Program-made: the position numbers and the translations under genes
The notes under the pieces: generated by a model
What the model saw: the letters and a program-made list of their open reading frames with translations, nothing else
What the model was told of the DNA's origin: nothing
Database searches by the model: none
Part shown: positions 1,278 through 17,676 of the stretch, piece after piece
Layout: each line of letters begins with the position of its first letter
How positions within the stretch are numbered: position 1 is the first letter of the stretch
Assembly (NCBI GenBank): GCA_964344235.1
Contig: CAYFMJ010000001.1
Span: 320,001-384,000 of the forward strand
DNA from: an uncultured Methanosarcinales archaeon
GTDB taxonomy: Archaea; Nanobdellota; Nanobdellia; Woesearchaeales; GW2011-AR9
Direction of reading: 5' to 3'
DNA: 64,000 bases

Positions 1278-3458
1278 ATGATTAAAAAGATGGATAAACC
1301 AGCAATCATAGGTGGAAGAAAAGAGTTTGAAGAGTTTTTACCGATAGTAAGACCTTCTTTACCAACACTCTCTCAGATAAGCGTTCAAGTAGAAGAAGTT
1401 CTGGCGAGCGGCATGGTGACGAATTTTTCGAAGTATACTCAACAGCTGGAACGTGAGTGTGGAAATTATCTAAACGTTAATTTTAGTCTTTCTCAACCAA
1501 ACGCCACCACTGGATTACTGTTACTCTGTAAAGTGTTAGGTCTTACGGGAGAAGTTATTGTACCAAGTTTTACTTTCTCAGCGACTGTTCATGCACTGAT
1601 TTGGAATGGCCTTACACCAGTTTTTGTTGATATTGACCCTGAAACGTTTAACATTGATCCAAAACTCGTGGAAGAAAAGATAACAGACAAGACCTCTGCC
1701 ATTTTAGGAGTACACATTTTTGGTAATCCCTGTGACGTTAAGGAATTAGAAGAAATAGCGAGGAAACATGATTTAAAATTACTCTTCGATGCTGCTCATG
1801 CCTTTGGTTCGGAGTATCAAGGAAAGAAAATCGGAGGCTGTGGTGATGCAGAAGTTTTTAGTATGAGCGGAACTAAATTATTAGTGACTGGAGAGGGAGG
1901 TTTAATTACCACTACAGATAAAGATTTGTCTGACAAGCTTAGGTTAGCAAGGAACTATGGGGATCCGGGAAATTATAATTGTGTTTTTGTTGGTTTTAAT
2001 GGAAAAATGTCTGAGTTTTCAGCGATTATTGGCTTGCAGTCTCTGAAAGATATTTCTGGTCAAGTTAGGAATAGAAATATTATTAGAAATATTTTCGAAC
2101 AAGAGTTACGAAGTGTTCCGGGAATTAGTTTTCAGAAGATAAGAGAAGGAAATATCACATCAGTGAAAGACTTTTCAATTATAGTTGATAAGAATGAATT
2201 TGGCATCAGTAGAGATCAATTGGCTAAGTGTTTAGCAGCGGAGAACATTCATTCCAAAAAATATTTTTATCCTCCAATTCATTTTATGGATGCTTATAGA
2301 GAGTTTCATGAACAGTATTATGGGAAACTACCACACACGGAAAAAGTCTCCTGGAACATTCTTTGTTTGCCGATCCATAGTACTATGTCGGAAGAGCAGG
2401 TAAAGAAGATATGCAATGCAATTAGGAGAATTCAGCATTTTCATCAAGAAATTGTTCAGGAAGCGGAAGATATTAGTTCAGTGTTGATAACAGGGGGCGC
2501 AGGGTATGTGGGAGTTGTCTTAGCAAGGCAGTTGTTAGAGCAAGGGTATAAAGTTAAAATTCTGGACCAGCTTATTTTTGGTAAAGAGCCTTTACAAGAG
2601 ATTGAAGGACATCCAAACTTTAGCTTGGAAGTTGGTGTGGTTGAGGATAAATATGTGGTAGAAAAGAGTTTAGAGGGGATTGATGCAGTTATTCATTTGT
2701 CTGGTTTATCCAATGATCCTTCTTGTGAGTTAAACTCTGATTTGACGAAGAAATCAAATATAGATGCAACGAAAGTTCTTTTACAGTTTGCAAAAGCAAA
2801 AGGCGTAAAGAGATTTATCAATGCTTCTTCATGTAGTGTGTATGGTTTTACAAATGGTGTTTTGGTGGATGAACAAAGTCCGCCAAACCCTCTGACTGCT
2901 TATGCAAAATCGAAAGTAAAAAGTGAGGAGTTAGTTCTCGCTGAGTCAGAGGAAGATTTTGTGACAGTTTGTTTACGAAAATCAACGATTTATGGCCCTT
3001 CACCAAGAATGAGGTTTGATCTTGTTATTAACACAATGACGGGAATGGGAATGAGTGAGGGCAAGATTGTTATCAATGGTGGTGAACAATGGCGCCCTTT
3101 CTTGCATGTTGAAGATGCAGCGAGTGCGTATCTGTTTATGTTACAAGCACCTAAAGAACAAATCAATGGGCAAGTGTTCAACGTAGGGAGTAACTACCAA
3201 AACATTAAAATTATAGATTTGGCGCATAGAATTGCTGCTGTTCTTCCTGGCGTAAAGGTTGAGCAGAGTCACTCTCCCGATAAAAGGAGTTATTTAGTTA
3301 GTTTTGATAAAATCAGTGCACTTGGCTGGAAAGCTACATTTGATATCGAAGATGGAGTTCATGGTGTGAAAAAACTATTTGATGAAGGAAAAGTGAAGAA
3401 TTTTCGCGATTTAAATTATTTTAACATAAAGAGAATGATTTCCTATTTGAATGTTTAG
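1278..3458 (+). CDS. Fusion of DegT/DnrJ/EryC1/StrS aminotransferase and NAD-dependent epimerase/dehydratase (extended SDR)
   Basis: N-half has FDAAHAFG, FSMSGTKLLVTGEGG (PLP lysine) and GFNGKMSE. C-half has VLITGGAGYVG, SSCSVYG and YAKSK (YxxxK). Confidence 0.9.
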   Translation: MIKKMDKPAIIGGRKEFEEFLPIVRPSLPTLSQISVQVEEVLASGMVTNFSKYTQQLERECGNYLNVNFSLSQPNATTGLLLLCKVLGLTGEVIVPSFTFSATVHALIWNGLTPVFVDIDPETFNIDPKLVEEKITDKTSAILGVHIFGNPCDVKELEEIARKHDLKLLFDAAHAFGSEYQGKKIGGCGDAEVFSMSGTKLLVTGEGGLITTTDKDLSDKLRLARNYGDPGNYNCVFVGFNGKMSEFSAIIGLQSLKDISGQVRNRNIIRNIFEQELRSVPGISFQKIREGNITSVKDFSIIVDKNEFGISRDQLAKCLAAENIHSKKYFYPPIHFMDAYREFHEQYYGKLPHTEKVSWNILCLPIHSTMSEEQVKKICNAIRRIQHFHQEIVQEAEDISSVLITGGAGYVGVVLARQLLEQGYKVKILDQLIFGKEPLQEIEGHPNFSLEVGVVEDKYVVEKSLEGIDAVIHLSGLSNDPSCELNSDLTKKSNIDATKVLLQFAKAKGVKRFINASSCSVYGFTNGVLVDEQSPPNPLTAYAKSKVKSEELVLAESEEDFVTVCLRKSTIYGPSPRMRFDLVINTMTGMGMSEGKIVINGGEQWRPFLHVEDAASAYLFMLQAPKEQINGQVFNVGSNYQNIKIIDLAHRIAAVLPGVKVEQSHSPDKRSYLVSFDKISALGWKATFDIEDGVHGVKKLFDEGKVKNFRDLNYFNIKRMISYLNV

Positions 3459-4223: not shown

Positions 4224-5150
4224 ATGACAAAAACAATGAGAGACCAACTTCGTGCTGATGGTGAATTGGCGTTGGCAGGCCTTGTTCATCCAGAGATTAT
4301 TCGTGGTGACCCTGCGTCTTGTACAGCAGAATTTAGCAAATTAATTGTTAATCTTTGCCTCCGTGTGGAAGATGATGATTATGTACGACGTATTACAGAA
4401 GACGATGTTGATCGAGTGATGCTTCATGCAGATTCCCAGATTGGAAGACCAGAAGCCCACCGTTCTCACATTATCACAACAGGGTATTTGTTCCAAAGTC
4501 TCACAGCAGCTCTTCTTGATACACATCCAGACTTAGATTTACCCCATCCGGATATTGCGCGTGCTATGGGTTGGCTACACGATCTTAATATGATGTTTAG
4601 TAGTTATCAACGAGGAGGTCAATTGTCGAAGGAATTAGATTTGTTTTTCTTAGGTGCTATGAATGGCTGGACACGGATAGCAGATCATATGGCGATGCAT
4701 AGTGCTTATTTTGAGATTGGACAGCTTCTTACTGGGGAGTATCAATTTCCAGAAAAAAATGAAGCGTATGAAGGTATGCGGGAAGTTCTAAGGGGAGGGG
4801 GCCCATTATCACTTACTGCTATCACAGAGCGGTTTAGAGGATATCATCGAGGTACTGATAACATGCCGCTACTCGCCTTAACAGTGGTTGATTATATGGA
4901 ACGTGGTTTAAGAACCTTTGATCCTACGAAGATAGAAGCGGACTTTGCTGCACGATCGGAGGATGTTCTTTGGCGCTACCATGGGAAACATGTAGAAGCA
5001 GAAATGGCGCCACCGCCTCTTGGCGTTGCGTTAATGTCGGGGGGATTAACGAGAATAAAAGGGTACAAAGACATAGTTAGAAAACTTCTTTCTGATGATA
5101 TTGAAGCAATTGATAGGTTACGAGAAACAACTCATCTGTTTAAGAAATGA
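4224..5150 (+). CDS. Hypothetical protein, HD-domain-like
   Basis: 308-aa ORF with RSHII...GWLHDL and a later HSAY, consistent with H...HD metal ligands. Confidence 0.45.
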   Translation: MTKTMRDQLRADGELALAGLVHPEIIRGDPASCTAEFSKLIVNLCLRVEDDDYVRRITEDDVDRVMLHADSQIGRPEAHRSHIITTGYLFQSLTAALLDTHPDLDLPHPDIARAMGWLHDLNMMFSSYQRGGQLSKELDLFFLGAMNGWTRIADHMAMHSAYFEIGQLLTGEYQFPEKNEAYEGMREVLRGGGPLSLTAITERFRGYHRGTDNMPLLALTVVDYMERGLRTFDPTKIEADFAARSEDVLWRYHGKHVEAEMAPPPLGVALMSGGLTRIKGYKDIVRKLLSDDIEAIDRLRETTHLFKK

Positions 5151-5255
5151 TCTTCTGTTCAATAGAATTCCTGAATTTTTGTTACTTTTAAACAATAATC
5201 CATAAACTTAATAAAGAAATTTGGTGCTTTTGATTGAGTCAAGGTGGAATGATAT

Positions 5256-6557
5256 ATGAAAAAAGTATATGTCGCAATGAGTGCAGACTTCTTACACGAA
5301 GGTCATATGAACATCCTAGACGAAGCTCGGAAATTAGGAGAAGTAACAATAGGATTATTGACAGATGAGGCTGTAGCTACATATAAAAGAATGCCCCTTT
5401 TGAGTTATGAACAACGGAAGAGAATTTTTCGAAATATTGTTGGCGTTTGTGATGTTATACCACAGCATACTTTAGATTATGAAGAAAATATTCGTCAGTT
5501 GAAGCCAGACTTTGTTGTTCATAGTGATGATTGGAAAACGGGAATACAGAAGCCGATCCGGGAAAAGGTAGTTGCCACTTTACAAGAATGGGGAGGAATA
5601 CTGATTGAACCAAGATATACTGAAGGGATTTCCTCTTCGAAAATGGTTGGTCAAATTCGGGAGAGGGGCACTACTCCTGATGTACGAAGAAATATGCTGC
5701 GTCGATTGTTAGCAGCAAAACCATTAGTAAGAGTTCTAGAAGCTCATAATGGTCTCACTGGGTTGATTGTTGAAAAAACAAAAATACAGAATCACTTAGG
5801 ACATATTAAAGATTTTGACGGAATGTGGTTAAGCAGTTTGACGCATTCTACCTCTAAGGGAAAACCAGATATTCAATACGTTGATATTACATCCACTGGT
5901 CAGACCATTAGTGAAATTTTTGAAGTTTCTACCAAACCACTAATTGTTGATGCGGATAATGGTGGGCTTATCGAACATTTTCGTTTTACTGTGAGAACGC
6001 TGGAAAGGCTTGGTGTATCTGCAGTTATTATTGAAGATAAAGTGGGAGCAAAACGGAACTCGTTATTTGGAACTGATGTTAAGCAGACACAAGATAGTAT
6101 TAAAGGCTTTTCAGAAAAGATTTCGGAGGGTAAGAAATCTCTAGTTTCTGATGATTTTATGATTATTGCTAGGATTGAAAGTTTCATTTTGAAGAAGGGT
6201 CTGGAGGACGCTCTAACCCGGGCAAGAGCGTACATAGAAGCAGGAGCAGATGCTATTATGATTCATAGTAAAGAGAATTCACCGTCGGAGATTCTTTCTT
6301 TCTGTGAAGAGTATAAAAGGTTTAGCACGAGAGTTCCATTGGTTGCTGTCCCATCTTCGTATAGTGAGATTACTGAGGAGCAATTAATAGAAGCAGGGGT
6401 GAATGTTGTGATCTATGCAAATCACTTACTAAGAAGTGCGTATCCAGCAATGGTTAGGGCGGCGGAGTCTATATTACAACATGGGCGCTGTCATGAAGCG
6501 AGCAAGAACTGTATGGAAATTAAAGAAATTCTCAAATTGATACCTAATGGAGAGTAG
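5256..6557 (+). CDS. aepX: Phosphoenolpyruvate mutase with N-terminal cytidylyltransferase domain
   Basis: PEP mutase signature EDK-X5-NS (EDKVGAKRNS), EAHNGLTG, and IARIES...RARAYIEAGADAIMIHS. N-terminal HxGH (DFLHEGH) CTP-transferase domain. Confidence 0.95.
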   Translation: MKKVYVAMSADFLHEGHMNILDEARKLGEVTIGLLTDEAVATYKRMPLLSYEQRKRIFRNIVGVCDVIPQHTLDYEENIRQLKPDFVVHSDDWKTGIQKPIREKVVATLQEWGGILIEPRYTEGISSSKMVGQIRERGTTPDVRRNMLRRLLAAKPLVRVLEAHNGLTGLIVEKTKIQNHLGHIKDFDGMWLSSLTHSTSKGKPDIQYVDITSTGQTISEIFEVSTKPLIVDADNGGLIEHFRFTVRTLERLGVSAVIIEDKVGAKRNSLFGTDVKQTQDSIKGFSEKISEGKKSLVSDDFMIIARIESFILKKGLEDALTRARAYIEAGADAIMIHSKENSPSEILSFCEEYKRFSTRVPLVAVPSSYSEITEEQLIEAGVNVVIYANHLLRSAYPAMVRAAESILQHGRCHEASKNCMEIKEILKLIPNGE

Positions 6558-6654
6558 AGTACCAATATAGTGGACTAATTTAGAGTTCAAAGGTGGCCTT
6601 TGAAACAATCACTTTTACATATGATTTATAAAGAGGAATACGTGTCGAACCATT

Positions 6655-7794
6655 ATGCAACAAGAATATTTTGGTATGGGAAGTATTACGTTTTTGAAGG
6701 AAATATTAGAGCGAGAAAACCCGAGTAAAATATTTTTAGTGCGGGGGAAACAGGCGTATGTTTCTTCAGGTGTGCAAAAAAAATTGGAACCCTTTCTTTT
6801 TGATTATGAGGTGGTTCACTTCTCAGATTTCTCTGTGAACCCAAGAATTGAAGATGTGGAGAAAGGAATAGAACTTTATAAAAAAGAAAAGTGCGATTTT
6901 GTCATTGCTGTTGGCGGAGGAAGTGTTATTGATATGGCGAAGTCAATAAACGTACTTTCTGTGCAACCAGAGGAACCTCCAAAATATATCCTTAAGGAGT
7001 TGCCAATAGAGATGAAAGGAAACCCATTAATTGCTATTCCTACAACATCAGGGACTGGAACTGAAGCAACTCAGTTTGCTGTTGTATATATTGGCAAAAA
7101 GAAATATTCACTCGCCCATAAAGAAATCCTTCTACCAAGTTATGTGATTCTGGATCCATCATTAACCTCTTCTCTGCCGGCTAAGGTGACAGCTTCAACA
7201 GCCATGGATGCATTGGCTCAAGCTATTGAAGCACACTGGTCAGTTCATTCTACCAGAGAATCAAAGATATTTTCGCGAGGCGCTATTTCACTTATTTTAG
7301 ATAATGTTCACGCTGCTGTTAATAGTCCAACAGAAGAAGCGAGAATAGCGATGATGAAAGGTTCAAATTTAGCGGGAAAAGCCATAAATATCGCCAAAAC
7401 AACAGCATGCCATGCTGTTTCTTACCCAATCACCTCTTACTTTAATATTCCACATGGCCATGCAGTTGCGTTGACTTTGGGCGAGATGTTTGTATTCAAT
7501 GCACAAATAGTAGAAGACCAATGCTCTGACAAAAGGGGAGTGGGTTATGTTAAAGATACAATGTATGAACTGATTCAACTTTTCAAAGTGGAAACTGCTC
7601 AAGAAGTTCGTATTAGAATAGAACAATTAATGGATTCTATACAACTGGAACGGAATTTGTCAAAGTTACATATTACAACAGAAGATCACTTTAATCTCAT
7701 CATTCAAAATGGATTTAATCCGGAAAGGGTTAAAAATAATCCTCGGCTCTTAACAGAACAGAATTTAAGAAGCATGTTAACACGCATAAAGTAA
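6655..7794 (+). CDS. Phosphonoacetaldehyde reductase (iron-containing alcohol dehydrogenase; 2-hydroxyethylphosphonate-forming type)
   Basis: GGGSVIDMAK, PTTSGTGTE, DALAQAIE and HAVSYPIT...IPHGHAV motifs. Lies directly after PEP mutase. Confidence 0.85.
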   Translation: MQQEYFGMGSITFLKEILERENPSKIFLVRGKQAYVSSGVQKKLEPFLFDYEVVHFSDFSVNPRIEDVEKGIELYKKEKCDFVIAVGGGSVIDMAKSINVLSVQPEEPPKYILKELPIEMKGNPLIAIPTTSGTGTEATQFAVVYIGKKKYSLAHKEILLPSYVILDPSLTSSLPAKVTASTAMDALAQAIEAHWSVHSTRESKIFSRGAISLILDNVHAAVNSPTEEARIAMMKGSNLAGKAINIAKTTACHAVSYPITSYFNIPHGHAVALTLGEMFVFNAQIVEDQCSDKRGVGYVKDTMYELIQLFKVETAQEVRIRIEQLMDSIQLERNLSKLHITTEDHFNLIIQNGFNPERVKNNPRLLTEQNLRSMLTRIK

Positions 7795-7855
7795 TATCGA
7801 GTTGTCCATAAGATTATTCCATAAGTCTTAAGAAGGAGATTTTGACCATGCGAGT

Positions 7856-9343
7856 ATGGTTAATTATGGTTCAAAGCTTCTAAAAGGGGCCGGTATTATT
7901 TTCTTTATGAGTTTACTGAGTGCTGGTTTGGGGTATGGAATACGAATTATTCTTGCTAAGAATTTAAGTACTGCAGATTTTGGCCTTTTTTTTGCTGTTT
8001 ATAACATAGTGTTGATGCTTGGTTGGATGAAAGGGTTTAGTTTTACGTCTGTTGTTCAAAAGTTTATACCTGGGTTTAAAGCTAAAGGAGATTATACGAA
8101 AATAAAATCAATGTTTATATTTGTCCTTATCTTTACTTCATTAACGAGCTTACTGCTTGTCATCTTAATTTACTTATTCCCGGAACACCTTATTAACAGC
8201 TACTTTAAGAGTAATGTAGCAAAGTCATTGCTTTGGATAATTACTCTTTTTTATATTATTGATGACTTCTCAAAGCTTGTTGCGGGATACTTCCTTTCTG
8301 TACATTTGCCGTTTCTTTACTCCCTGCGGGATTTATTAGTCCGATTATCCCTTTTTCTGCTTTTGTTTGTTGTTACTATTAATACTTTTTCTGTGGCCTG
8401 GCTCTATGTTGTAGCAGCAGCACTCGCACTTGTTGTTAATCTGTTACTTTTTATACGATATTTTCCTTTTCAGTATAAAACTTCAATCACAAAAGATCTA
8501 GTGCGGAAATTATTTAGCTTTAGCACTCCTCTTATTATACGGGATTTTTTTGGCGTCTTTTTGAGTAGGGTGGACAACCTTTTTCTTGTCTATTTCAGGC
8601 CTTTGACAGAAGTTGCTATCTATAACACTATTTTGCCAACGGCAGAGCTCTTATTGTTTATTTCTCGACCTTTTGCAAAGGTCTTGTTTCCCCTGTCCTC
8701 AGAATTGTGGTTTATGCAAGATAAAAGAAGGCTGAGGAGTCTTCTAGGTATAACCCACAAATATTTGCTGTTACTTTTAATTCCACTCGCACTCTTTGTT
8801 GGTTATCTATCAACTTTTATTTTAAGTCAATTTTTTGGCTCAGTGTATGTAGAAGGATCTTTTGGATTAAGGATATTAATTGTTGGAATCCTATTTTCTA
8901 GCTTGAATCTTGTGGGTTATGCTGTTCTAAAAGGCATCGGAAAGACCAAAGAAGTGGCAGTAATTCATATATTTATAAATAGTCTTAATGTTATTCTTAA
9001 TATAATCTTAATACCCTTATTTGGATCATTGAATCAAGGTTATTTTGGGGCTATAATTGCAACAACATGCAGTTTCTTTGTTGCCTTTTTACTTTTGACA
9101 TACTTCTTACATAAATTTTTGCACTATAGACTTTCTCTAGCTATCCTTTTATTTATCGTTACAAGTGGTTTTGCTTCTTTGCTTATTATGCATGTCATTG
9201 TAACACCGATTTCATCTTTGTATGTGCAATTAGCTGTTTTTATTGTTGGTTTCTCCCTGCTGTATCTCGTATTTATCTTTGTGTTGAAAATCACTTCAAA
9301 GCAAGAGATTGTTACTTTATTGAAGATGTTGAGGTCATCTTAG
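7856..9343 (+). CDS. Oligosaccharide flippase (Wzx/AglR-like, MOP superfamily)
   Basis: About 14 hydrophobic segments; IILAKNLSTADFGLF, RVDNLFL, GAIIAT patterns. Confidence 0.85.
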   Translation: MVNYGSKLLKGAGIIFFMSLLSAGLGYGIRIILAKNLSTADFGLFFAVYNIVLMLGWMKGFSFTSVVQKFIPGFKAKGDYTKIKSMFIFVLIFTSLTSLLLVILIYLFPEHLINSYFKSNVAKSLLWIITLFYIIDDFSKLVAGYFLSVHLPFLYSLRDLLVRLSLFLLLFVVTINTFSVAWLYVVAAALALVVNLLLFIRYFPFQYKTSITKDLVRKLFSFSTPLIIRDFFGVFLSRVDNLFLVYFRPLTEVAIYNTILPTAELLLFISRPFAKVLFPLSSELWFMQDKRRLRSLLGITHKYLLLLLIPLALFVGYLSTFILSQFFGSVYVEGSFGLRILIVGILFSSLNLVGYAVLKGIGKTKEVAVIHIFINSLNVILNIILIPLFGSLNQGYFGAIIATTCSFFVAFLLLTYFLHKFLHYRLSLAILLFIVTSGFASLLIMHVIVTPISSLYVQLAVFIVGFSLLYLVFIFVLKITSKQEIVTLLKMLRSS

Positions 9344-9383
9344 TTTCTTAATATTTATAAATAGCTGACATTTTTTTTGGAGG

Positions 9384-10799
9384 ATGAAAAAGAACACATT
9401 AAATGGTCGAAAGTTTGTTTTTTTCTCTGGGTCGTCGGGGCGTGACAAGATGATGATAAAAATAGCGAAACAGCTTGCTTCACGAAATGGTGTGAAAACT
9501 CACTTCCTGACGTTTACACCTGGCCAAACAGTTGATTATTTTGTTTCAGAGGGAATTAAGAGCGATTGTGTTACATCTGTTCTTCACCTCCCTAATCCTG
9601 CTGTGAAGCCAGACATGGCTTTCTTGAAGTCTAAGGAGATAGAATATGGGGTTCAGTTCTTTGACATCTGGCAAATTGCTGCGGCTAGAAGCAAAAAACG
9701 CCATAACATAAAGTCCACTAAGGTGCTGGCCCAAATGGAATTCTTTGTTCGAGAGCTTGAACACTTTATTAAAAAGGTTAAGCCCGATTATCTTGTTGTT
9801 TCTGGGGTTTCATCGTATGTTACCCTCCTTGCATACAAAATTTTTATGAAGAAGGGACTTCCTGTATTAGAGATAACAAACCCACGTATTCCTAATCGGT
9901 TTGCAATTGATGATAAACTGAAATCCGAGTGGCCCTTGCTTGTGAAGAAATACGAAGAAATAAAAAACACCTCTTTGAAGCCGCGGCAGAGGAAAGAAGC
10001 GCTGGACTTCATGCAGTCTTTCTATGTGAAACCTTTAAAGTCAGATAACCAGACTACAGAGAACCAGGACTTCTCACAAAGATTTGCGAGATACTTTAGA
10101 CACATAAAAACATTGTATTATAGACGCCGCCTTCCAGCATTAAGGGTTTTTTGGACTCCTATTAAAGATTTTTTCTTAAAGAATTCTTCACGGTTTGAAC
10201 TTCCAGTAGATGGAGAAAAATTTGTCTTTCACCCTTTACAAATCCAACCAGAGGTTTCTACTCTCCTTAAGGGCAAGTGGTATGTTAATCAAGTAGCCTT
10301 GATTGAAAATATCGCCAAAAGCCTTCCTTGCGATTACAAGCTTTATGTTAAAGAACATGTTAAAAATTATTCCCAGCGCCCCCCAAACTTTCATCGTGAT
10401 ATTAAGCGATTCCCTAATGTTCGTTTGATTGCCCCTTCCGCTGACACTATTTGGTTAGCCAAAAAATGTTCGCTGGTTACGACGATTACTGGAACGATTG
10501 GTTGGGAAGCAATCTTGTTACGCAAGCCGGTTTTAACGTTTGGACAGGTCTTTTATAACCAGTTTGAAGAAGTCGTGTCTGTTGTGGATATTAAACAGCT
10601 TCCCAACATTATAAAAAGCAAACTTGATACTGTTGTTGATCTTGAGAAAACACTGCAATTTGTTAGTGCAGTACAACAGTCAACGTTTCCGGGAATAAGA
10701 GCTCTTCCAACTGACTGTCGAGATCGCTCATTAAAAGATGAGAATATCTTAGCGCTCACTCAAGGGTTAGAACAATATATTTATGCAATGAACCTTTGA
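9384..10799 (+). CDS. Capsule polysaccharide synthesis (KpsS/Capsule_synth-like) putative CMP-sugar-dependent transferase
   Basis: FHPLQIQPEVS, LYVKEH and VTTITGTIGWEAILLRKPVLTFGQVFY motifs. Confidence 0.7.
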   Translation: MKKNTLNGRKFVFFSGSSGRDKMMIKIAKQLASRNGVKTHFLTFTPGQTVDYFVSEGIKSDCVTSVLHLPNPAVKPDMAFLKSKEIEYGVQFFDIWQIAAARSKKRHNIKSTKVLAQMEFFVRELEHFIKKVKPDYLVVSGVSSYVTLLAYKIFMKKGLPVLEITNPRIPNRFAIDDKLKSEWPLLVKKYEEIKNTSLKPRQRKEALDFMQSFYVKPLKSDNQTTENQDFSQRFARYFRHIKTLYYRRRLPALRVFWTPIKDFFLKNSSRFELPVDGEKFVFHPLQIQPEVSTLLKGKWYVNQVALIENIAKSLPCDYKLYVKEHVKNYSQRPPNFHRDIKRFPNVRLIAPSADTIWLAKKCSLVTTITGTIGWEAILLRKPVLTFGQVFYNQFEEVVSVVDIKQLPNIIKSKLDTVVDLEKTLQFVSAVQQSTFPGIRALPTDCRDRSLKDENILALTQGLEQYIYAMNL

Positions 10800-10837
10800 T
10801 AGTGATTTGTATCGCTCTGTAGTTCTGTTGGTGATTT

Positions 10838-12544
10838 CTAGTCTTTGCCAAGTGTTTGGCGTAAATAACTTTTTGTTTCAATCAACAGCTTCTTTGGGTC
10901 TTTTAAGTAATGGGTCTTTTTAGCGTAGATTAAAGAGAGACCTTTGAGAAACCAGCCAGGAGGTTTTTTTATGAACGTTAGATTATAGTCTAAATAGGTA
11001 GTTGTTGTTGATGTAAGCTTACTTGCGATCTTCATGAGATCTCTCCTCCCTGCACCAAAAGGGTTATCTAAGGGAATCATTGTGAGATCATACGGTTTAT
11101 TGCAAAGTTGAGAACAGTTTTTCATGAAATCATCAAAATGGATGGTGGTGAAGTGGATGTCCACTTGGTCCGTAGATCGGCCAACATCTTGATGTTCAAA
11201 CGCCCATTTTTTGGAGAAGGAACTCTCTCGAACGTTAACGTTATAGTGCGTTATCTTTCCTTTTGGCTCAAACCCCCCGTATGTGGTTTTATAGTTGTTC
11301 ATTATCTTCTTATTAATCACCACATCTAACTCATAGTGTGAAAAAGTAGCATCGAGTGCTTTGATTACCATGGAAATAAAAGTGCTATTCGCAGAGCCTA
11401 ATAACAATATTCGCTTAATATTTTGAATTTTCTTTATTGAGAAATGCTTCGCAATTTCTCGCTGAAACTTATTTGTTAGGTATGTTGTGTGGTATGTAAC
11501 GAGGTCCTTTTCCTGCTGCTGCAATTCTTTTCGGAAAAAATCCAGTTCTACGGCATGCTCTGGCGAGGCAATGAGGTTGGTTTGCTCGTCGGGATCACGA
11601 GAAAGATCATAGAATTCTTCACTCTGCTCGTCAAATCGAAAAATATATTTATACTTCTCTGTCTGCAAGGCTGTAGCCCGTTCTTTCTGGAAAATATATC
11701 GTATGTCGCTGCGGAATAGTTTTTTTGTATAAGGAGCATCATGTTCAATAAGTGGCAGTAAACTCATCCCTCGAAATCCAAATTCACTGTGAGGAATATT
11801 TACAATATCTAGAATAGTTGGTGTTATGTCAAGGGGACTCACTAGGGTTTTTATTCTCTTTCTCGGACAAGAAGGATATTTCAAAAAAAGGTGTTGTAAA
11901 ATATTTGAATTGGTAAGAATAAGGTCATGGCGCTTCATGATTTTTTTTCGCTCATTGTCATTCCAACCATGGTCTGGGCAGAATAAAAAAAGACAATCAT
12001 CATACAACCCTTCTTTCTTTAACCTCTCAATCAGAAGTCGTACGTATTTTGCAGTATTCTCTTGGTTGTTGTAGTTTAGAAGGAGAAAGAACGGTTCTTG
12101 TAGCTTTCTTTCTAACAGGTGATCCAACAGTTTGTTGATGTCCTGGCTTTTCCAATTATCATCATTTCTGATTCCATCGGGCAGCTCCTTTTGGTCTAGT
12201 GAAAGAACCGCTTGTTTTAATCTCTTCCGAACTTCAGCGGAGTGTGTTGTTGCATATACTGTGTAACCATTTTTTTTAAGAATTCTACTAATGGAAGGAA
12301 AGTAATCATGGTCAAAGCTAAAATCCGCGTTAGTTCTACTGAGATGGATACCAGGCTGGCTAGTCATTAACGAGCTTTGTGACATCAAAGTGCTTGCAGT
12401 TGTGTCTACGACGTTTTCAAAGTACACTCCCTCTGAAGAGATTTCATCAATAATTTTATATTTCCCAAAACGATCCTTTCCAGGATAGTTGCGTATTGCT
12501 TCTCCAAGAATCCAGATTACATTTAGCTTTTTTTTAGAAGACAT
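10838..12544 (-). CDS. Alkaline phosphatase/sulfatase-superfamily hydrolase or transferase
   Basis: EAIR, GVYFEN, PDHG, DITPTILD and EFYDLSRDPDEQTNL motifs. No CxPxR formylglycine motif. Confidence 0.7.
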   Translation of the reverse strand: MSSKKKLNVIWILGEAIRNYPGKDRFGKYKIIDEISSEGVYFENVVDTTASTLMSQSSLMTSQPGIHLSRTNADFSFDHDYFPSISRILKKNGYTVYATTHSAEVRKRLKQAVLSLDQKELPDGIRNDDNWKSQDINKLLDHLLERKLQEPFFLLLNYNNQENTAKYVRLLIERLKKEGLYDDCLFLFCPDHGWNDNERKKIMKRHDLILTNSNILQHLFLKYPSCPRKRIKTLVSPLDITPTILDIVNIPHSEFGFRGMSLLPLIEHDAPYTKKLFRSDIRYIFQKERATALQTEKYKYIFRFDEQSEEFYDLSRDPDEQTNLIASPEHAVELDFFRKELQQQEKDLVTYHTTYLTNKFQREIAKHFSIKKIQNIKRILLLGSANSTFISMVIKALDATFSHYELDVVINKKIMNNYKTTYGGFEPKGKITHYNVNVRESSFSKKWAFEHQDVGRSTDQVDIHFTTIHFDDFMKNCSQLCNKPYDLTMIPLDNPFGAGRRDLMKIASKLTSTTTTYLDYNLTFIKKPPGWFLKGLSLIYAKKTHYLKDPKKLLIETKSYLRQTLGKD

Positions 12545-12612
12545 GTTTACCTTATCTTTTCATTTTTCTGTTTTGCTTGCGTTTATAAGTTTTATTAAGT
12601 TACATACCAGTG

Positions 12613-14094
12613 TTACTGTTGCTTTTTCAGCGACTCACTTGTACTATACTCTTTTCCTCCATCTTCTTTCACACCATACTTTTTCAGAAGGTAATTATAG
12701 AGGAAATAAATAGTGGCGTCTTGGTCCTCGATCGGAAAGCTTGAAATGACCATTCCCTGTAATCGATGATTACCACATCGTTCTGCATGCCTCTGTGTTG
12801 GGGTGAAGATTTCCTTTGTTTTTAGTAGTGAAGAAGGCCAAAAGCGAAAATCGGTGTCATAGAATAGTAAGTCCGGTGCTTGGTCTAAGTGTTTACCTCT
12901 GTATACTTCCTCTTTTTTCTTTACTTCATGTTTGAAGCACCATCCCTGTTCGCGCTGTAACACTTCATATACTTTGTTCCTTACTCTCTCAAAATCTTCC
13001 TTAGCAACACTTCCTGCTTTGAAATCACTTGTATTGATATAAACGCCATTTTCCATTGCAAAAGCAACAGTATTCTCCCAGTCAATGAGTTTTTTGTTAA
13101 CAGCATCGTTCCATTGCAACGCACCCACTTCGGAGGGAATCAGTCTTGATACATTAGTGCCTTTCAGCAACGCATATGCTAACTTTTTGATTTTGAATTT
13201 CATGAGTAAGGTATCAATTTTGTTGGAATCTAACTTTAGTGTGCTTAAGACAGAAGAGATAAACGTGCTATTTTTTTTCAACTTGAGAAAGTCATTTCTC
13301 ACTAACCATTCGTTAAGGTGGAATTTCCCATGCAACGCACCACCGCCGTGGTCGCTTAAGATGATGATTTCGCCATCATGGCCTGTGACGAGTTTTCCAA
13401 CTTCATGATCGACGAGTTCATAATAGTCATAAAATGCTTTTTCATATTCTTCATTCTCTTCATAGATTGGGCTATCGTGGTAGACATACCTGGCCATAAG
13501 GTGTTGTACGGCGTCAGTGCCGTTTTCAACAACAACAACAACGTCTGGTTTTAGTTCTTTGAGTAACTTTTTCACAACTTTAAAACGAACTTCTGTTGCG
13601 CTTCTGATTTGCTGTATTAACTCATTCATGCTATTCCAGTTGTAGGTAAGTTGGTACTTAGGTAATTCCTCTTTAATCATCTCACGAATCTCTTTTGGGT
13701 AGATGAAGGAATCACTGTCCATGGAAGGTGTGTATACACCCGTTAGAATAAAGCCGTTAAAAGGGCGCGCAGGATATGTTCCTGGAACGTTTATAATTCC
13801 GCAACGGGCATCTACTTTCTCCCAAAAAGGAACAAAATTGTAATGTTTAACAGGGACTTTCGCGTAATCTTTTACTGTATGACAACCAAATAAACCAATC
13901 TCTCCTGGATTACTGCCGCTGACAATGCAAGACCACGCAGGAACAGAATTCGGTGGAATGACGCTTTTTACTTCTTTCAAAGAACCTGCTTTTATTATTT
14001 TTTCAATGTTAGGAATTTTCTTTTTTTTAATAAGTGCTTCAATTAAATTTTTACTTACTCCATCTAATCCAATGACAATTGTCTGTTTATTCAT
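12613..14094 (-). CDS. Alkaline phosphatase-family protein (type I phosphodiesterase/nucleotide pyrophosphatase-like)
   Basis: VIGLDG, SVIPPNSVPAWSCIVSG, NVPGTYP, DAVQH, LSDHG, APDL and GNHRLQG motifs. Confidence 0.85.
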   Translation of the reverse strand: MNKQTIVIGLDGVSKNLIEALIKKKKIPNIEKIIKAGSLKEVKSVIPPNSVPAWSCIVSGSNPGEIGLFGCHTVKDYAKVPVKHYNFVPFWEKVDARCGIINVPGTYPARPFNGFILTGVYTPSMDSDSFIYPKEIREMIKEELPKYQLTYNWNSMNELIQQIRSATEVRFKVVKKLLKELKPDVVVVVENGTDAVQHLMARYVYHDSPIYEENEEYEKAFYDYYELVDHEVGKLVTGHDGEIIILSDHGGGALHGKFHLNEWLVRNDFLKLKKNSTFISSVLSTLKLDSNKIDTLLMKFKIKKLAYALLKGTNVSRLIPSEVGALQWNDAVNKKLIDWENTVAFAMENGVYINTSDFKAGSVAKEDFERVRNKVYEVLQREQGWCFKHEVKKKEEVYRGKHLDQAPDLLFYDTDFRFWPSSLLKTKEIFTPTQRHAERCGNHRLQGMVISSFPIEDQDATIYFLYNYLLKKYGVKEDGGKEYSTSESLKKQQ

Positions 14095-14207
14095 CTCTGC
14101 CGGGCTTTGAATTTTGTTTATAAAGATTATGAATAAAGAATGAAAAAAAGAAAGATTTATATACGAAATGTCTCAGAAATAATAAATTAGTAAAACGAGA
14201 GGTATCA

Positions 14208-15917
14208 ATGGTTGAAAGTCAAAATGAGGAAATGTTAGGGACAGTGAAAACTTCTGGTTCGACGCCGAGCGGTGATAGTAGCCCTACAGTTCCTACAGTA
14301 AATGTTGCAGTGAACGCCCCTACAATTGATGGTGGCGTTCAAACACCCATTGCTCCTGCGGCGTCAAACGGAACTTCATTTGCAAATAATAGTGCTTCTG
14401 CAACAACTGAGAATGAAAAATTTAGAGTGCTCTTAATCCACGCAAATTCTTCTATGGATACCTTAATTCCACCCAACTTGGCAACTCTATCTGCTTATTT
14501 GAAACAAGCGGGGAATGAAGTGAAACTATTTGATACAACGTTTTACAATACCCGTGGATTTACCGGTGATGATTCTCGAGTTAGAACCCTGCAGGTCAAA
14601 GAAACTAAGTTTGCTGATTTAGGAATTCACTTTGAGACGACGGATATGGTGGAAGATTTCATAAAAATAGTTGAGGAATACCAACCTAATCTTGTTGGAT
14701 TATCTGCCGTTGAGTTGACATTCCAAATGGGGATGAATTTGATCAACGCTATGAAAGAGATCAGACCAGATATCCCGGTTATTGTAGGAGGCTCACATGC
14801 TATTACATCGCCTGAGGCAGTTGCTGCGGAGAAAAATGTTGATCTTATTTCAATCGGAGAAGCTGAAAAATCCTTTGTAGAGTTATGCACTAAATTACAG
14901 AACGGCGAAGATTATACTCAAATTCTGAACATGTGGGTTAAAAAGGATGGCCAAATTTACAAAAATAAGTTGGGAAATCTGATTGCAATGGATGATCTTC
15001 CTCGCCAAGATTGGGAAATTTTTGATAAACGAAGAATCTACAAACCAATGTCGGGGACTATTGGCAGAACTGGTTGTTTTGAGCTTACGCGCGGCTGTGT
15101 TTTCTCTTGCACTTTTTGTATCAATGAATTCTTAAATAAGACGCACAAACATCGAAGTTATCGAGAGAAAAGTATCCCTAAATTTATCGAGGAAGTGCAA
15201 TATTTCAAAGAGAAATATGGGATTGAATATGTTTATATTCTCGCAGAGATGTTTCTTCCAACTTCTAAAGAGAGAGTACGAGAGTTTTCCCGCCTGTGGA
15301 AAGAGAAGGTTGGTCTTCCATTTTGGTGTCAGGTAAGGGTTGAGGGCGTTGATGAGGAAAATGCTAGACTGCTTGAAGAAGCGGGTTGTGTATCAATCTC
15401 GGCTGGTATTGAGAGCGGTAATGAAGAATTTAGAAGAAATGTTATTCATAGAATGATGAGTAATGAAAAAATAATTGAAGCGTTTAGAATTCTCAAGAGC
15501 ACAAAAATGCAAATTTCGGGCAATAGCATCATTGGGTTCCCTGGAGAAACTCGCGAACAAATATTTGATACTATTGAGCTTAATAGAAAATTAGATTTGG
15601 ATAATATTATGATTCATGTCTTTAATCCTTATCGAGGTACAACTTTGTATGATGTTAGCGTTGAAAGAGGGTACATTACTCCCAACCACATGGCGGGTGA
15701 TTACAGGGCAGATTTTACATTAAACATGCCACACATTACAAAGGAAGAAATCCTTGGACTACAAAGAACTTTTAACATGTACGTCAAATTTCCAAGAGAA
15801 ATGTGGCCCGAAATAAAAATTGCGGAAAGGATGGATGAAGAAGGGAACAAGAAATTTGCAGAACTGAGTAAAAAGTTTAAAGAAGAATTCTTTGCAAAAC
15901 CATTAATGATGCATTAA
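14208..15917 (+). CDS. Cobalamin-binding radical SAM protein
   Basis: CxxxCxxC (RGCVFSCTFC), B12-binding domain (VGLSAV, IVGGSHA), GIESG, IIGFPGET. Has a ~70-aa S/T/P/A-rich N-terminal extension. Confidence 0.9.
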   Translation: MVESQNEEMLGTVKTSGSTPSGDSSPTVPTVNVAVNAPTIDGGVQTPIAPAASNGTSFANNSASATTENEKFRVLLIHANSSMDTLIPPNLATLSAYLKQAGNEVKLFDTTFYNTRGFTGDDSRVRTLQVKETKFADLGIHFETTDMVEDFIKIVEEYQPNLVGLSAVELTFQMGMNLINAMKEIRPDIPVIVGGSHAITSPEAVAAEKNVDLISIGEAEKSFVELCTKLQNGEDYTQILNMWVKKDGQIYKNKLGNLIAMDDLPRQDWEIFDKRRIYKPMSGTIGRTGCFELTRGCVFSCTFCINEFLNKTHKHRSYREKSIPKFIEEVQYFKEKYGIEYVYILAEMFLPTSKERVREFSRLWKEKVGLPFWCQVRVEGVDEENARLLEEAGCVSISAGIESGNEEFRRNVIHRMMSNEKIIEAFRILKSTKMQISGNSIIGFPGETREQIFDTIELNRKLDLDNIMIHVFNPYRGTTLYDVSVERGYITPNHMAGDYRADFTLNMPHITKEEILGLQRTFNMYVKFPREMWPEIKIAERMDEEGNKKFAELSKKFKEEFFAKPLMMH

Positions 15918-16558
15918 TAGGCTGGGCTGAAATCAAGTTCGTCATCCTGGATATAGGCAATCTTTTTTTGCAGTGCAATATATGCTTTCTGCAGCTCCCG
16001 ACCTAGATAGGCGGCGTGGTCATATCGAGAAAGAAGGTTTTCTTTAATGGCAGTTTGGTAAATCTCAAGTGGTTTCGTGCCAATGATTTTCACACTGACT
16101 TTGTTGACTGTAGGACAAAACCCCACATGAATCTCCTTCTTCTGATGATCTACTTTGATTAAAAAATAGCCTTTTTGATCCATCATAAATTCTTTGCGAT
16201 CATCATATTGAGCGTGGATTACTCTTAATGCGGTGGTATCAACCTCTGTTTTCACAACTTTTGTATTATCCTCTTTGTTGATTACCTGGATGGCATTTAC
16301 GGGACAAGCCTCAGCAGCGGCAATAAGCTTTTGGGCCTCTTGGGGTGTACAGACAAGACTTCTAACACTATTCTGGTTTTCCTGATGACCTTTGACAAGT
16401 TCTGCCGTGTTTTCTTTTATGAAAAAATTATTTGGGTCAATCCGTTGACAAACCCCGTTAGCAACACATTTTTTCTGATCTAATAGTACTTGAAAGGATT
16501 TAGCTTTTTCTTCTGAGGTTTGATGTTTATTCTGTTCTGTTGATTGTTGTTCTGTCAT
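15914..16558 (-). CDS. Ferredoxin-DUF4346 fusion protein
   Basis: CVANGVC...AAEACPVNAI ferredoxin with the second Cys replaced by Asn, then DQKGYFLI...DHAAYLGRELQKA...YIQD (DUF4346 pattern). Confidence 0.75.
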   Translation of the reverse strand: MTEQQSTEQNKHQTSEEKAKSFQVLLDQKKCVANGVCQRIDPNNFFIKENTAELVKGHQENQNSVRSLVCTPQEAQKLIAAAEACPVNAIQVINKEDNTKVVKTEVDTTALRVIHAQYDDRKEFMMDQKGYFLIKVDHQKKEIHVGFCPTVNKVSVKIIGTKPLEIYQTAIKENLLSRYDHAAYLGRELQKAYIALQKKIAYIQDDELDFSPAY

Positions 16559-16677
16559 GTAAAACACGGAAGCTACTTTCTTTATAAATATTCTGAATAT
16601 CTTGGTTGGAGGCGTGTTCCGACAGTGGCCTTAATATCTTCCTTCACTAATCGAAGCCCTACAATAGATCATGAGAA

Positions 16678-16739
16678 CTTAGTTACGCCGGGTCATGTAG
16701 TACTCTGTACTACAGTGGCACTACAATGGCACATAACAG
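16678..16739 (-). repeat. Probable dispersed copy of the TGTTATG-hairpin-GCGTA junction element
   Basis: Minus strand reads TGTTATGTGCC...TGTAGTAC-aga-GTACTACA...GGCGTAACTAAG. TGTTATGTGCC is identical to 59574-59584 and GCGTAAC to 59604-59610. Confidence 0.55.
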
Positions 16740-16911
16740 AAATGGGATATTTTTGGAATGTTCCGATAACCATTGATTTTTGTTAGAGATGATTATTTAG
16801 CACTCAGCCAGGTGTTCCACAATATTTATAAGACCAATTATTTTTTTGAGCGTAAAATGAGCTTGGTGCTCTTTTGGTTGGAGAAAGCTATGTGTTGGTG
16901 GTTAATGTATT

Positions 16912-17676
16912 ATGAAAGCTCTTATCTTAAATTCAGGAGTGGGCAATAGAATTGCTGATGTGGTTAGTGGTAAGCCTAAGTGTTTGATTGAAATTGGCCC
17001 CGGAACAACGATCCTGAGTCAGCAGATCCAGCATCTTCTTGATGCAAACATTAATGAATGTATCGTGACTACAGGTCCTTTTGTTGAAGATATCAAGAAT
17101 CATATCCGACAGAAATTCCCTCAGATGAATGTCCAATATGTACATAACCCCCTTTACAGAACGACTAATTATATTTATTCGTTGTACTTAGCTCGAAAGT
17201 TTATTGATGACGATATTCTATTGCTCCACGGGGATTTAGTATTCGAACCAGAGGTTCTTACACGATTACTTCAGGATTCTGCTCCTAATGCCATCCCTGT
17301 TGACACATCTGTGCCGCCGCCGGAGAAAGATTTCAAAGGCCGAATTGAGCAAGGGTGCATCAAAGAGGTAGGAGTTAATACATCTGGGTCGGATTGCTAT
17401 TTTGTTGCACCTCTCTATAAGTTTTCTCAACAATCTTTCCTTGATTGGCTGGTACAGATCGAGCAATTCATTTTTGAGGGCGAGCATACCGTTCATGCCG
17501 AGAATGCGCTGAACCAAATTATGGATGCACTCCAGGTTAAGGCTGTGCCTATTAATGGAATATTTTGTTCTGAGATTGATACAAAAGAAGATATGGATTC
17601 TGTGTGCACGTATTGGCGGAGGAGGAGCAAGAGAAACGATTATTCTCTTTTGGGTGAGAGCTTAACAAGCACCTAA
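16912..17676 (+). CDS. Phosphocholine cytidylyltransferase-family nucleotidyltransferase (LicC/PntC-like)
   Basis: LILNSGVGNRI...KPKCL, NPLYRTTNYIYSL, LLHGDLVF and EIDTKED motifs. Confidence 0.8.
   Translation: MKALILNSGVGNRIADVVSGKPKCLIEIGPGTTILSQQIQHLLDANINECIVTTGPFVEDIKNHIRQKFPQMNVQYVHNPLYRTTNYIYSLYLARKFIDDDILLLHGDLVFEPEVLTRLLQDSAPNAIPVDTSVPPPEKDFKGRIEQGCIKEVGVNTSGSDCYFVAPLYKFSQQSFLDWLVQIEQFIFEGEHTVHAENALNQIMDALQVKAVPINGIFCSEIDTKEDMDSVCTYWRRRSKRNDYSLLGESLTST

Follow-up and report, generated by a model that had tools for sequence, protein, structure and literature searches.

A 64-kb stretch of contig CAYFMJ010000001.1 (assembly GCA_964344235.1; hereafter, the window), which derives from an uncultured archaeon, contains genes that we interpret, with a probability of about two in three, as a Fom1/Fom2/FomC-type gene module for phosphonate biosynthesis within an archaeal surface-glycan island. 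The core of the module comprises a gene for a cytidylyltransferase fused to a phosphoenolpyruvate (PEP) mutase (Ppm) and an adjacent gene for an iron-dependent alcohol dehydrogenase (Fe-ADH), whereas the predicted phosphonopyruvate decarboxylase (Ppd) is encoded on another contig of the same genome. A preliminary description of this DNA covered positions 5256-7794; phosphonate-linked genes reach far beyond 7794, and the cluster occupies approximately positions 4224-17676. Gene identities, family memberships and conserved linkage can be considered established, and from them we infer the individual enzymatic reactions, including tailoring of the head group, as well as the acceptor.

Core enzymes of the phosphonate module

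The gene at positions 5256-6557 (plus strand) encodes a 433-aa protein that is predicted to be a bifunctional enzyme of the Fom1 type, with a 2-hydroxyethylphosphonate (2-HEP or HEP) cytidylyltransferase domain at residues 1-136 and a PEP mutase domain at residues 144-431. Pfam matches were found for both parts (PF01467, CTP_transf_like, residues 11-130; PF13714, PEP_mutase, residues 148-407). The protein scored 391.1 bits against the PEP mutase equivalog TIGR02320 (cut-off 319.55), and the sister families scored lower (phosphonopyruvate hydrolase, 138 bits; methylisocitrate lyase, prpB, 105 bits). Its translation contains LHEGH (HxGH), RYTEGISS (RTxGISTT-type) and EDKVGAKRNS (EDK-X5-NS), the last of which corresponds to the EDKxxxxxNS catalytic motif of PEP mutase (PMC6697681). 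A search of the PDB matched residues 4-136 to the cytidylyltransferase domain of Streptomyces wedmorensis Fom1 (5X3D, E 2.9e-50) and the C-terminal part to the Mytilus PEP mutase (E 1.4e-39). Methylisocitrate lyases were twenty orders of magnitude weaker in the same search, and thus the protein does not cluster with the non-mutases of the isocitrate lyase family; it groups with Fom1-type Ppm. Over its full length it is 59% identical to Fom1 from the fosfomycin cluster of S. viridochromogenes NRRL 3413. The preliminary description had proposed both a bona fide PEP mutase, on the basis of its EDK-X5-NS motif, and a fused HxGH cytidylyltransferase, and the two assignments are well supported by these results.

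The second core gene (positions 6655-7794, plus strand) encodes a 379-aa protein with the Fe-ADH and ADH_Fe_C domains (PF00465, 1.7e-40; PF25137, 8e-32), which is the sole Fe-ADH of the genome. To place it and the other genes of the cluster in context, we used a comparison set of 80 loci encoding relatives of the cytidylyltransferase-Ppm fusion (L, G and P numbers below denote comparison loci, genomes and proteins, respectively). The gene order Fom1-like, Ppd, Fe-ADH is conserved across these loci: ppd lies 3' of the fusion gene at +1.3 kb in 71 of the 80, and Fe-ADH homologs follow ppd at approximately +2.4 kb from the fusion gene in 54, the closest being 50-54% identical to the window protein. 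Overall, relatives with 50-62% identity were located in ppm-ppd-adh operons. Relatives at 53-58% identity in metagenome-assembled genomes (MAGs) of Nanoarchaeota, Aenigmarchaeota and Parcubacteria have been named phosphonoacetaldehyde reductase by NCBI, and two relatives are fusions, one with a PF01467 cytidylyltransferase and the other (P0335) with a PF01066 CDP-alcohol transferase. Its status as the only Fe-ADH, the position of its subfamily after ppd and the names of its relatives lead us to predict a phosphonoacetaldehyde reductase that makes 2-HEP, in agreement with the initial assignment.

No Ppd or other thiamine diphosphate enzyme could be identified among all open reading frames (ORFs) of at least 100 aa in the window. 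The gap between ppm and adh is only 97 nt, so a ppd pseudogene remnant is ruled out. A search of the whole genome revealed one Ppd (TIGR03297, 482.7 bits; cut-off 312.5), encoded at positions 25880-26953 of contig C3, where it is flanked by unrelated small genes and where the GC content is compatible with the same genome. Its nearest relatives are Ppds of Fom1-like operons in DPANN archaea (59-66% identity). The pathway is therefore genomically complete, though unusually split, and an enzyme that could pull the unfavorable Ppm equilibrium forward appears to be encoded in the genome at an unlinked site. Four other members of the family have ppd next to ppm or 2-3 kb away from it, and one relative (G284, 91% complete) has ppm and no detectable ppd. 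The route from PEP via phosphonopyruvate and phosphonoacetaldehyde to 2-HEP suggested earlier is thus retained as far as its predicted enzymes are concerned, with the amendment that Ppd lies outside the window, alone on contig C3.

The bin that holds the window has a size of 1.19 Mb, a completeness of 96% and a contamination of 0.6%. Woesearchaeota/Nanoarchaeota MAGs encode ribosomal S2 proteins with 76-84% identity to that of the bin, which also encodes RadB, TrmB, an S_layer_C protein and CofD. The assignment of the source to a reduced archaeon therefore holds, and the sequences point to a DPANN genome of the Woesearchaeales type rather than to a non-archaeal bin. It should be noted that many third-party annotation bins deposited as 'uncultured Methanosarcinales archaeon' have S2 proteins of 76-84% identity that are placed among Woesearchaeota records, and these labels look wrong.

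Several other phosphonate routes were considered and rejected for this genome. No 2-aminoethylphosphonate (AEP) transaminase (PhnW/AepZ) was found above cut-off, which argues against the AEP route; a LicD-type transferase was looked for in the genome and not found; and no phosphonatase (PhnX) was found in the genome, which argues against a catabolic reading. The presence of Ppd on another contig, the DPANN nature of the genome and the Fom1-type fusion together support a CMP-2-HEP pathway, and CMP-HEP is the best-supported product that can be predicted from the gene content.

Genomic setting and proposed pathway

The first 37 kb of the window represent a glycan island, in which genes for GT4, GT2 and GT-C glycosyltransferases, DegT, an epimerase, a CMP-nonulosonate synthase and an AglH-like protein could be identified. 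These sugar-nucleotide enzymes and glycosyltransferases, together with a Wzx flippase, surround ppm, as expected from the surface-glycan locus first described. An AglB gene is located on the same contig 33 kb upstream, and an S-layer protein gene lies inside the window. The gene at positions 1278-3458 encodes a 726-aa protein in which a DegT-type sugar aminotransferase is fused to a short-chain dehydrogenase/reductase (SDR)-type epimerase/dehydratase; it is adjacent to a PseF-like CMP-nonulosonate synthase gene (488-1180), and thus a nonulosonic-acid route adjoins the phosphonate genes.

On the basis of these observations, the following pathway may be proposed. The PEP mutase domain would convert PEP to phosphonopyruvate, and the Ppd encoded on the other contig would pull the reaction toward phosphonoacetaldehyde. 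The sole Fe-ADH would then reduce phosphonoacetaldehyde to HEP, which the N-terminal Fom1-type domain would couple to CTP to give CMP-HEP. The activated head group is probably moved to a glycoconjugate, which the adjacent Wzx flippase would export, the target being an S-layer N-glycan or another surface polysaccharide; two proteins of the alkaline phosphatase fold are candidates for the transferase. Tailoring of the head group probably falls to a B12 radical S-adenosylmethionine (SAM) enzyme and its ferredoxin-DUF4346 partner, together with an HD-like hydrolase and a second nucleotidyltransferase, all of which we assign to this module; the likeliest reaction is a C-methylation close to the stage of phosphonoacetaldehyde. 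The gene content fits the decoration of an N-glycan or of another exported polysaccharide. The S-layer N-glycan or exopolysaccharide target of the preliminary description is in line with the AglB and S-layer protein genes, the glycosyltransferases and the flippase; the acceptor may be an N-glycan, another polysaccharide or, less probably, a lipid.

Radical SAM enzyme and its redox partner

An accessory gene at positions 14208-15917 (plus strand) encodes a B12-binding radical SAM enzyme (PF02310, 5e-16; PF04055, 2e-21) of a ppm-linked family, here designated group A. A CxxxCxxC motif (C-VFS-C-TF-C) is visible in the alignment. None of the NCBIfam cut-offs was reached by this enzyme, the best model being HpnJ (140 of 578 bits), and a PDB search retrieved only AprD4 and TokK, both with low scores. 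Membership in the PhpK family (TIGR04479, 100.8 bits versus a cut-off of 600) or the Sden_1168 family (NF038361, 88.1 versus 575) was rejected. Orthology to Fom3 was also rejected, as Fom3 of the S. viridochromogenes NRRL 3413 cluster (L170) shares only 22% identity with the enzyme. Matches to HppE (1ZZ6, E 1e-113) and FomD (5ZDM, E 2e-92) verified this reference as a true fosfomycin cluster, and it also holds homologs of Fom1, Ppd and FomC. Positions 14208-14411 encode an N-terminal extension of approximately 68 low-complexity residues, enriched in S, T, P, A and N. Orthologs (approximately 505 aa) lack it, and no ATG was found near the start of homology, so either the extension is real or the start codon is non-standard.

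Fom3-like enzymes do occur in other DPANN loci, where they form a separate group (38% identity to Fom3 in L011 and 43% in L254). In L254 (G153, contig C1, 108000-124000), from a DPANN genome of the same class as the present one, the Fom3-like gene (approximately 12054-13418, minus strand) is immediately upstream of those for Fom1-like, Ppd and Fe-ADH proteins. The locus further encodes a second B12 radical SAM enzyme and a small PF01467-type protein that stands alone. Judged by homology, this locus appears to be a near-complete Fom1-Fom2-FomC-Fom3 set in an archaeon.

Group A orthologs were found repeatedly beside phosphonate genes. Those that adjoin ppm in L010, L071 and L009 are 71-76% identical to the window enzyme, and P0151 (57%) also adjoins ppm. 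The ortholog in G154 (80%) is directly beside an operon of NTP-transferase, Fom1-like, Ppd and Fe-ADH genes. In L164 the ortholog (P0174, 53%) is fused to Ppd in a protein of 874 aa, and the fusion gene is flanked by Fom1-like, Fe-ADH, sulfatase-type and phosphodiesterase (PDE)-type genes. The ortholog in G229 (59%; L252, 5795-8974, minus strand) is part of a 1059-aa ORF that combines the radical SAM enzyme with an AEP-type class V aminotransferase and a class I methyltransferase, and it adjoins CDP-OH_P_transf, NTP transferase, Ppd and Ppm genes; by its domain content, this protein looks like a one-protein factory of a methylated aminophosphonate head group for a lipid or glycan. Group A thus accompanies HEP-type as well as AEP-type routes, and its fusion partners are enzymes by which phosphonoacetaldehyde is made or consumed; we therefore suppose that it performs a tailoring reaction at or next to this intermediate, most plausibly a C-methylation. 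More distant relatives (46-48%) were observed in a Candidatus Scalindua MAG (L246) and a Joint Genome Institute (JGI) metagenome contig (L247), in each of which a gene for AP_endonuc_2, a xylose-isomerase-like TIM barrel, precedes the radical SAM gene (around 6900-9500), a conserved pairing of another kind. The window itself encodes a protein with the AP_endonuc_2 domain at positions 55176-57302.

Convergent with the radical SAM gene is a gene (positions 15914-16567, minus strand) for a protein with a ferredoxin domain (Fer4_13) and a pterin/corrinoid-binding-like DUF4346 domain (PF14251), which likely serves the radical SAM enzyme as a redox or cofactor partner. The C-terminal part of this protein aligns with the corresponding region of the MtrA profile, and a 44% identical ortholog adjoins the group A gene in L010.

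Other genes of the cluster

Directly after the Fe-ADH gene, as stated in the preliminary description, a 495-aa flippase of the Wzx/MOP type (Polysacc_synt, MatE) is encoded at positions 7856-9343 (plus strand); flippases also adjoin Fom1-like genes in L010, L245 and L252. It is followed by a gene (9384-10799, plus strand) for a KpsS/KpsC-like (Capsule_synth) protein of the CMP-donor transferase type (PF05159, E 2e-10). No homolog of this protein was found in the other Fom1-like loci, and its part in the phosphonate step is uncertain.

Two genes on the minus strand encode soluble proteins of the alkaline phosphatase superfamily, and both products are candidate transferases or esterases. The first (positions 10838-12544) is sulfatase-type (PF00884, PF16347), with no hydrophobic segment found in the protein, and is a candidate phosphonyl transferase or esterase; its family is also found beside Fom1-like genes in L010, L071 and L164. 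The second (12613-14094) is of the Phosphodiest (NPP) type (PF01663, E 6e-27) and is 23-26% identical to its PDE-type counterparts in the phosphonate clusters of L010 and L164. Neighbors of the alkaline phosphatase family were detected in 4 of 17 archaeal versus 1 of 140 bacterial Fom1-like loci, a BLAST-level count in which other sulfatase subfamilies could be missed. We regard these two proteins as the best transferase candidates.

Upstream of the fusion gene, a 308-aa protein (positions 4224-5150, plus strand) is encoded for which neither a Pfam nor an NCBIfam match was found. It belongs to a rare family, with only 36 representatives among 1.84 billion proteins, in which H82, H119-D120, H159 and D223 are invariant. 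The all-helical AlphaFold2 model was of high confidence (pLDDT 97), and nearly all of the top 50 matches obtained with VIA-align were HD-superfamily proteins, although the Z scores were only 5-8.4; ESM Atlas gave weak HD hints, and Foldseek against the PDB returned nothing at E 0.001 or better. On the basis of its invariant residues and fold, it may be considered a divergent HD-superfamily-like protein and a candidate phosphohydrolase of the phosphonate module. The family adjoins ppm in three of four contexts (the window, L245 and L249; not L251). In L245 (11464-14052), which holds the closest relative of the fusion (72%), the place of ppd and adh after the HD-like and Fom1-like genes is taken by an ABC transporter of the phosphonate type (Phosphonate-bd, ABC_tran, BPD_transp_1), and a CDP-OH_P_transf gene and a flippase lie upstream.

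Finally, a nucleotidyltransferase of the NTP_transf_3 (LicC/PntC-like) family (PF12804, PF00483) is encoded at positions 16912-17676 (plus strand). In 17 of the 80 loci, and also in G154, homologs with 28-46% identity (most of them 35-46%) are part of the ppm-ppd-adh operon or adjoin it.

Alternative explanations

Several observations weigh against a Fom1/Fom2/FomC-type pathway with a tailored, surface-attached product. The Fe-ADH scores only 168 bits against TIGR03405 (Phn_Fe-ADH; cut-off 423.7) and is therefore outside that equivalog, and it is just 33% identical to FomC. Ppd is unlinked, among unrelated genes on contig C3, and coupling thus depends on correct binning, with which the GC content is compatible. 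To our knowledge, no transferase for CMP-phosphonates has been characterized, so that the acceptor step is conjectural. A distance of 7.6 kb and four genes separate the radical SAM gene from ppm, and the chemistry of its product is uncharacterized. In addition, its distant relatives (46-48%) pair with AP_endonuc_2 genes rather than ppm, so that ppm linkage is restricted to the close subfamily (at least 53% identity).

One possibility, which we put forward only tentatively, is that the group A radical SAM enzyme and the ferredoxin-DUF4346 protein carry out an uncharacterized tailoring step found in DPANN and some bacteria, and that in this archaeon a methylated C3 (hydroxypropyl-type) phosphonate, in place of 2-HEP, is activated with CMP and attached to the surface by soluble transferases of the alkaline phosphatase fold. 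The step would be at or next to the phosphonoacetaldehyde stage because group A is fused once to Ppd and once to an AEP transaminase and a methyltransferase. It is also conceivable, although we find it somewhat doubtful, that the product is plain 2-HEP and that the radical SAM, ferredoxin-DUF4346, HD-like and alkaline-phosphatase-family proteins are chance neighbors serving other glycan chemistry. The flippase and the KpsS-like gene do lie between ppm and these genes, both strands are used, a B12 radical SAM homolog occurs in only 8 of the 80 Fom1-like loci, and the distant relatives are not ppm-linked. However, all examined orthologs with at least 53% identity are within a few kb of ppm, the two radical SAM fusions join phosphonate enzymes (Ppd in one; AEP transaminase plus methyltransferase in the other), and the ferredoxin-DUF4346, PDE and sulfatase families recur jointly in L010 and L164. 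The 2-HEP head group of the preliminary description is hence only partly upheld: CMP-HEP is the best-supported product, but plain 2-HEP may not be the end product, given a ppm-linked B12 radical SAM enzyme in the cluster.

The same pathway could also deliver the head group to a lipid instead of a glycan, giving a phosphonolipid via a CDP-alcohol-type transferase. CDP-OH_P_transf genes beside the Fom1-like/ppm genes of L245 and L252, the fusion of an Fe-ADH homolog (P0335) to PF01066 and the five PF01066 genes of the genome are compatible with such a fate. None of the five is in the cluster, however, the nearest lying approximately 8 kb past the end of the window, and the immediate neighbors are the Wzx flippase, glycosyltransferases and sugar-nucleotide enzymes; a lipid target is thus kept, because of the CDP-alcohol transferases elsewhere in the genome, as an unlikely one. 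We consider it still less probable that the pathway is incomplete or decaying, with ppd lost from the operon and the C3 copy foreign or not co-expressed. The gap of 97 nt where 71 of the 80 relatives carry ppd, the ppd genes kept adjacent or 2-3 kb off in genomes of the same family, and the ppm of G284 without detectable ppd could all be seen as signs of loss; on the other hand, every ORF is intact, the C3 Ppd shares 59-66% identity with DPANN operon Ppds, and the bin has a contamination of 0.6% and compatible GC content. A diffusible, fosfomycin-like phosphonate antibiotic is highly improbable. With its Fom1-like, Ppd, FomC-like and B12 radical SAM enzymes, the gene set resembles the first four steps of fosfomycin biosynthesis, but the radical SAM enzyme is just 22% identical to Fom3, single-protein queries with HppE and FomD from L170 gave no match at E 0.001 in the 96% complete genome, and the genes sit in a glycan island with a flippase. 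A Fom1/Fom2/FomC-type module that serves the cell surface remains the reading that we favor.

Comparison with known phosphonate systems

The early steps of fosfomycin biosynthesis in Streptomyces, catalyzed by Fom1, Fom2 and FomC (Cho et al., 2017, as cited in PMC6697681), are a close enzymatic parallel. Both systems have a bifunctional cytidylyltransferase-Ppm (59% identity to NRRL 3413 Fom1), the same Ppd and Fe-ADH families and CMP-HEP as a predicted product, whereas no Fom3 ortholog and no HppE or FomD match was found, Ppd is unlinked and the context is one of glycan assembly. With regard to fate, a close parallel is an HEP conjugate that was purified from Stackebrandtia exopolysaccharide, as recounted by Li and Horsman (PMC8942020), who cite Yu et al. 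(2014), a work whose title also covers the phosphonoglycans of Glycomyces. The Fom1-like, Ppd, Fe-ADH operons of species from the two genera (L165 and L166) encode proteins with 60% identity to the window protein, and attachment of HEP to a polysaccharide is the fate proposed here. In contrast to the present case, these are Actinobacteria with a contiguous operon, and neither a group A radical SAM enzyme nor an alkaline-phosphatase-family pair was found in L165 and L166.

In archaea, a methylphosphonate cluster is known from Nitrosopumilus maritimus (PMC8942020, PMC9381506), where neighboring nucleotidyltransferase and arylsulfatase-type genes suggest phosphonate esters on polymers (PMC9381506). 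It shares with the window an archaeal ppm/ppd/Fe-ADH route via HEP. Unlike this thaumarchaeon, the DPANN genome appears to rely on a radical SAM enzyme of the B12-binding type where the other has an oxygenase (MpnS was not searched for). The PntC/LicC pathways resemble the predicted one in that a CMP-activated phosphonate is used for tailoring of the cell surface, and a PF12804 enzyme is present here as well (16912-17676); the characterized PntC enzymes, however, use AEP (Rice et al., 2019, PMC6697681), and this genome has no AEP transaminase above cut-off.

Fom3 and PhpK are cobalamin radical SAM C- and P-methyltransferases, respectively, of phosphonate pathways. The window enzyme has the same B12-binding and radical SAM architecture and is located in a phosphonate cluster, but its 22% identity to Fom3 and its score of 100.8 bits against the 600-bit PhpK cut-off set it apart from both.

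Distribution and gene transfer

The preliminary description implied that such a system would be rare, and this could not be maintained. More than 8000 database relatives of the cytidylyltransferase-Ppm fusion were found at E <= 1e-20, JGI has already named such proteins 'PEP phosphomutase / 2-hydroxyethylphosphonate cytidylyltransferase', and public Nanoarchaeota MAGs are annotated likewise. Rice et al. (2019, PMC6697681) reported a fused PF01467 domain in 23.6% of Ppm enzymes. In a survey of an even sample of the same phylum, ppm was present above cut-off in 20 of 401 genomes, and 8 of 41 genomes of the same family had it. The proportion in the phylum sample is about equal to the approximately 5% of bacteria reported to contain ppm (PMC8942020).

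A FastTree phylogeny of 157 fusion proteins (17 of them archaeal; the root was not inferred) placed the window protein nearest to the 72% identical relative, a Patescibacteria sequence and other DPANN sequences. The archaeal proteins require at least four to seven changes of label in this tree, which indicates repeated transfer between domains. Within the literature searched, the biosynthesis of phosphonates in DPANN, Woesearchaeota or Patescibacteria was not the subject of any paper, and a preprint on Borgs describes a Ppm-cytidylyltransferase fusion within an archaeal glycan cluster. The core is an ordinary and widespread gene set. What appears distinctive here is the split Ppd and the recurrent, uncharacterized accessory set, that is, the non-Fom3 radical SAM enzyme, the ferredoxin-DUF4346 protein, the HD-like protein and the alkaline-phosphatase-fold pair.

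Significance

A large share of organic phosphorus whose existence is poorly explained consists of phosphonates, and roughly half of the microbial phosphonate pathways are believed to serve the decoration of cell surfaces, with a benefit that is unknown (PMC8942020). The present analysis indicates that genome-reduced DPANN archaea spend genes on phosphonate chemistry, that this is recurrent in the phylum (ppm in approximately 5% of sampled genomes) and that the genes have been exchanged with bacteria, including Patescibacteria. Such organisms would be an additional, overlooked contributor of phosphonates to groundwater and anoxic sediments. Moreover, the radical SAM, HD-like and alkaline-phosphatase-fold families that are repeatedly tied to ppm are candidates for tailoring of the head group and for transfer of CMP-activated phosphonates to glycans; if the tailored C3 phosphonate proposed above is real, the alkaline phosphatase superfamily would represent a class not yet assigned to phosphonate-to-glycan transfer. 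For the organism itself, a phosphonate-decorated surface would be a candidate trait that may function in host contact or in resistance to phosphatases and phages.

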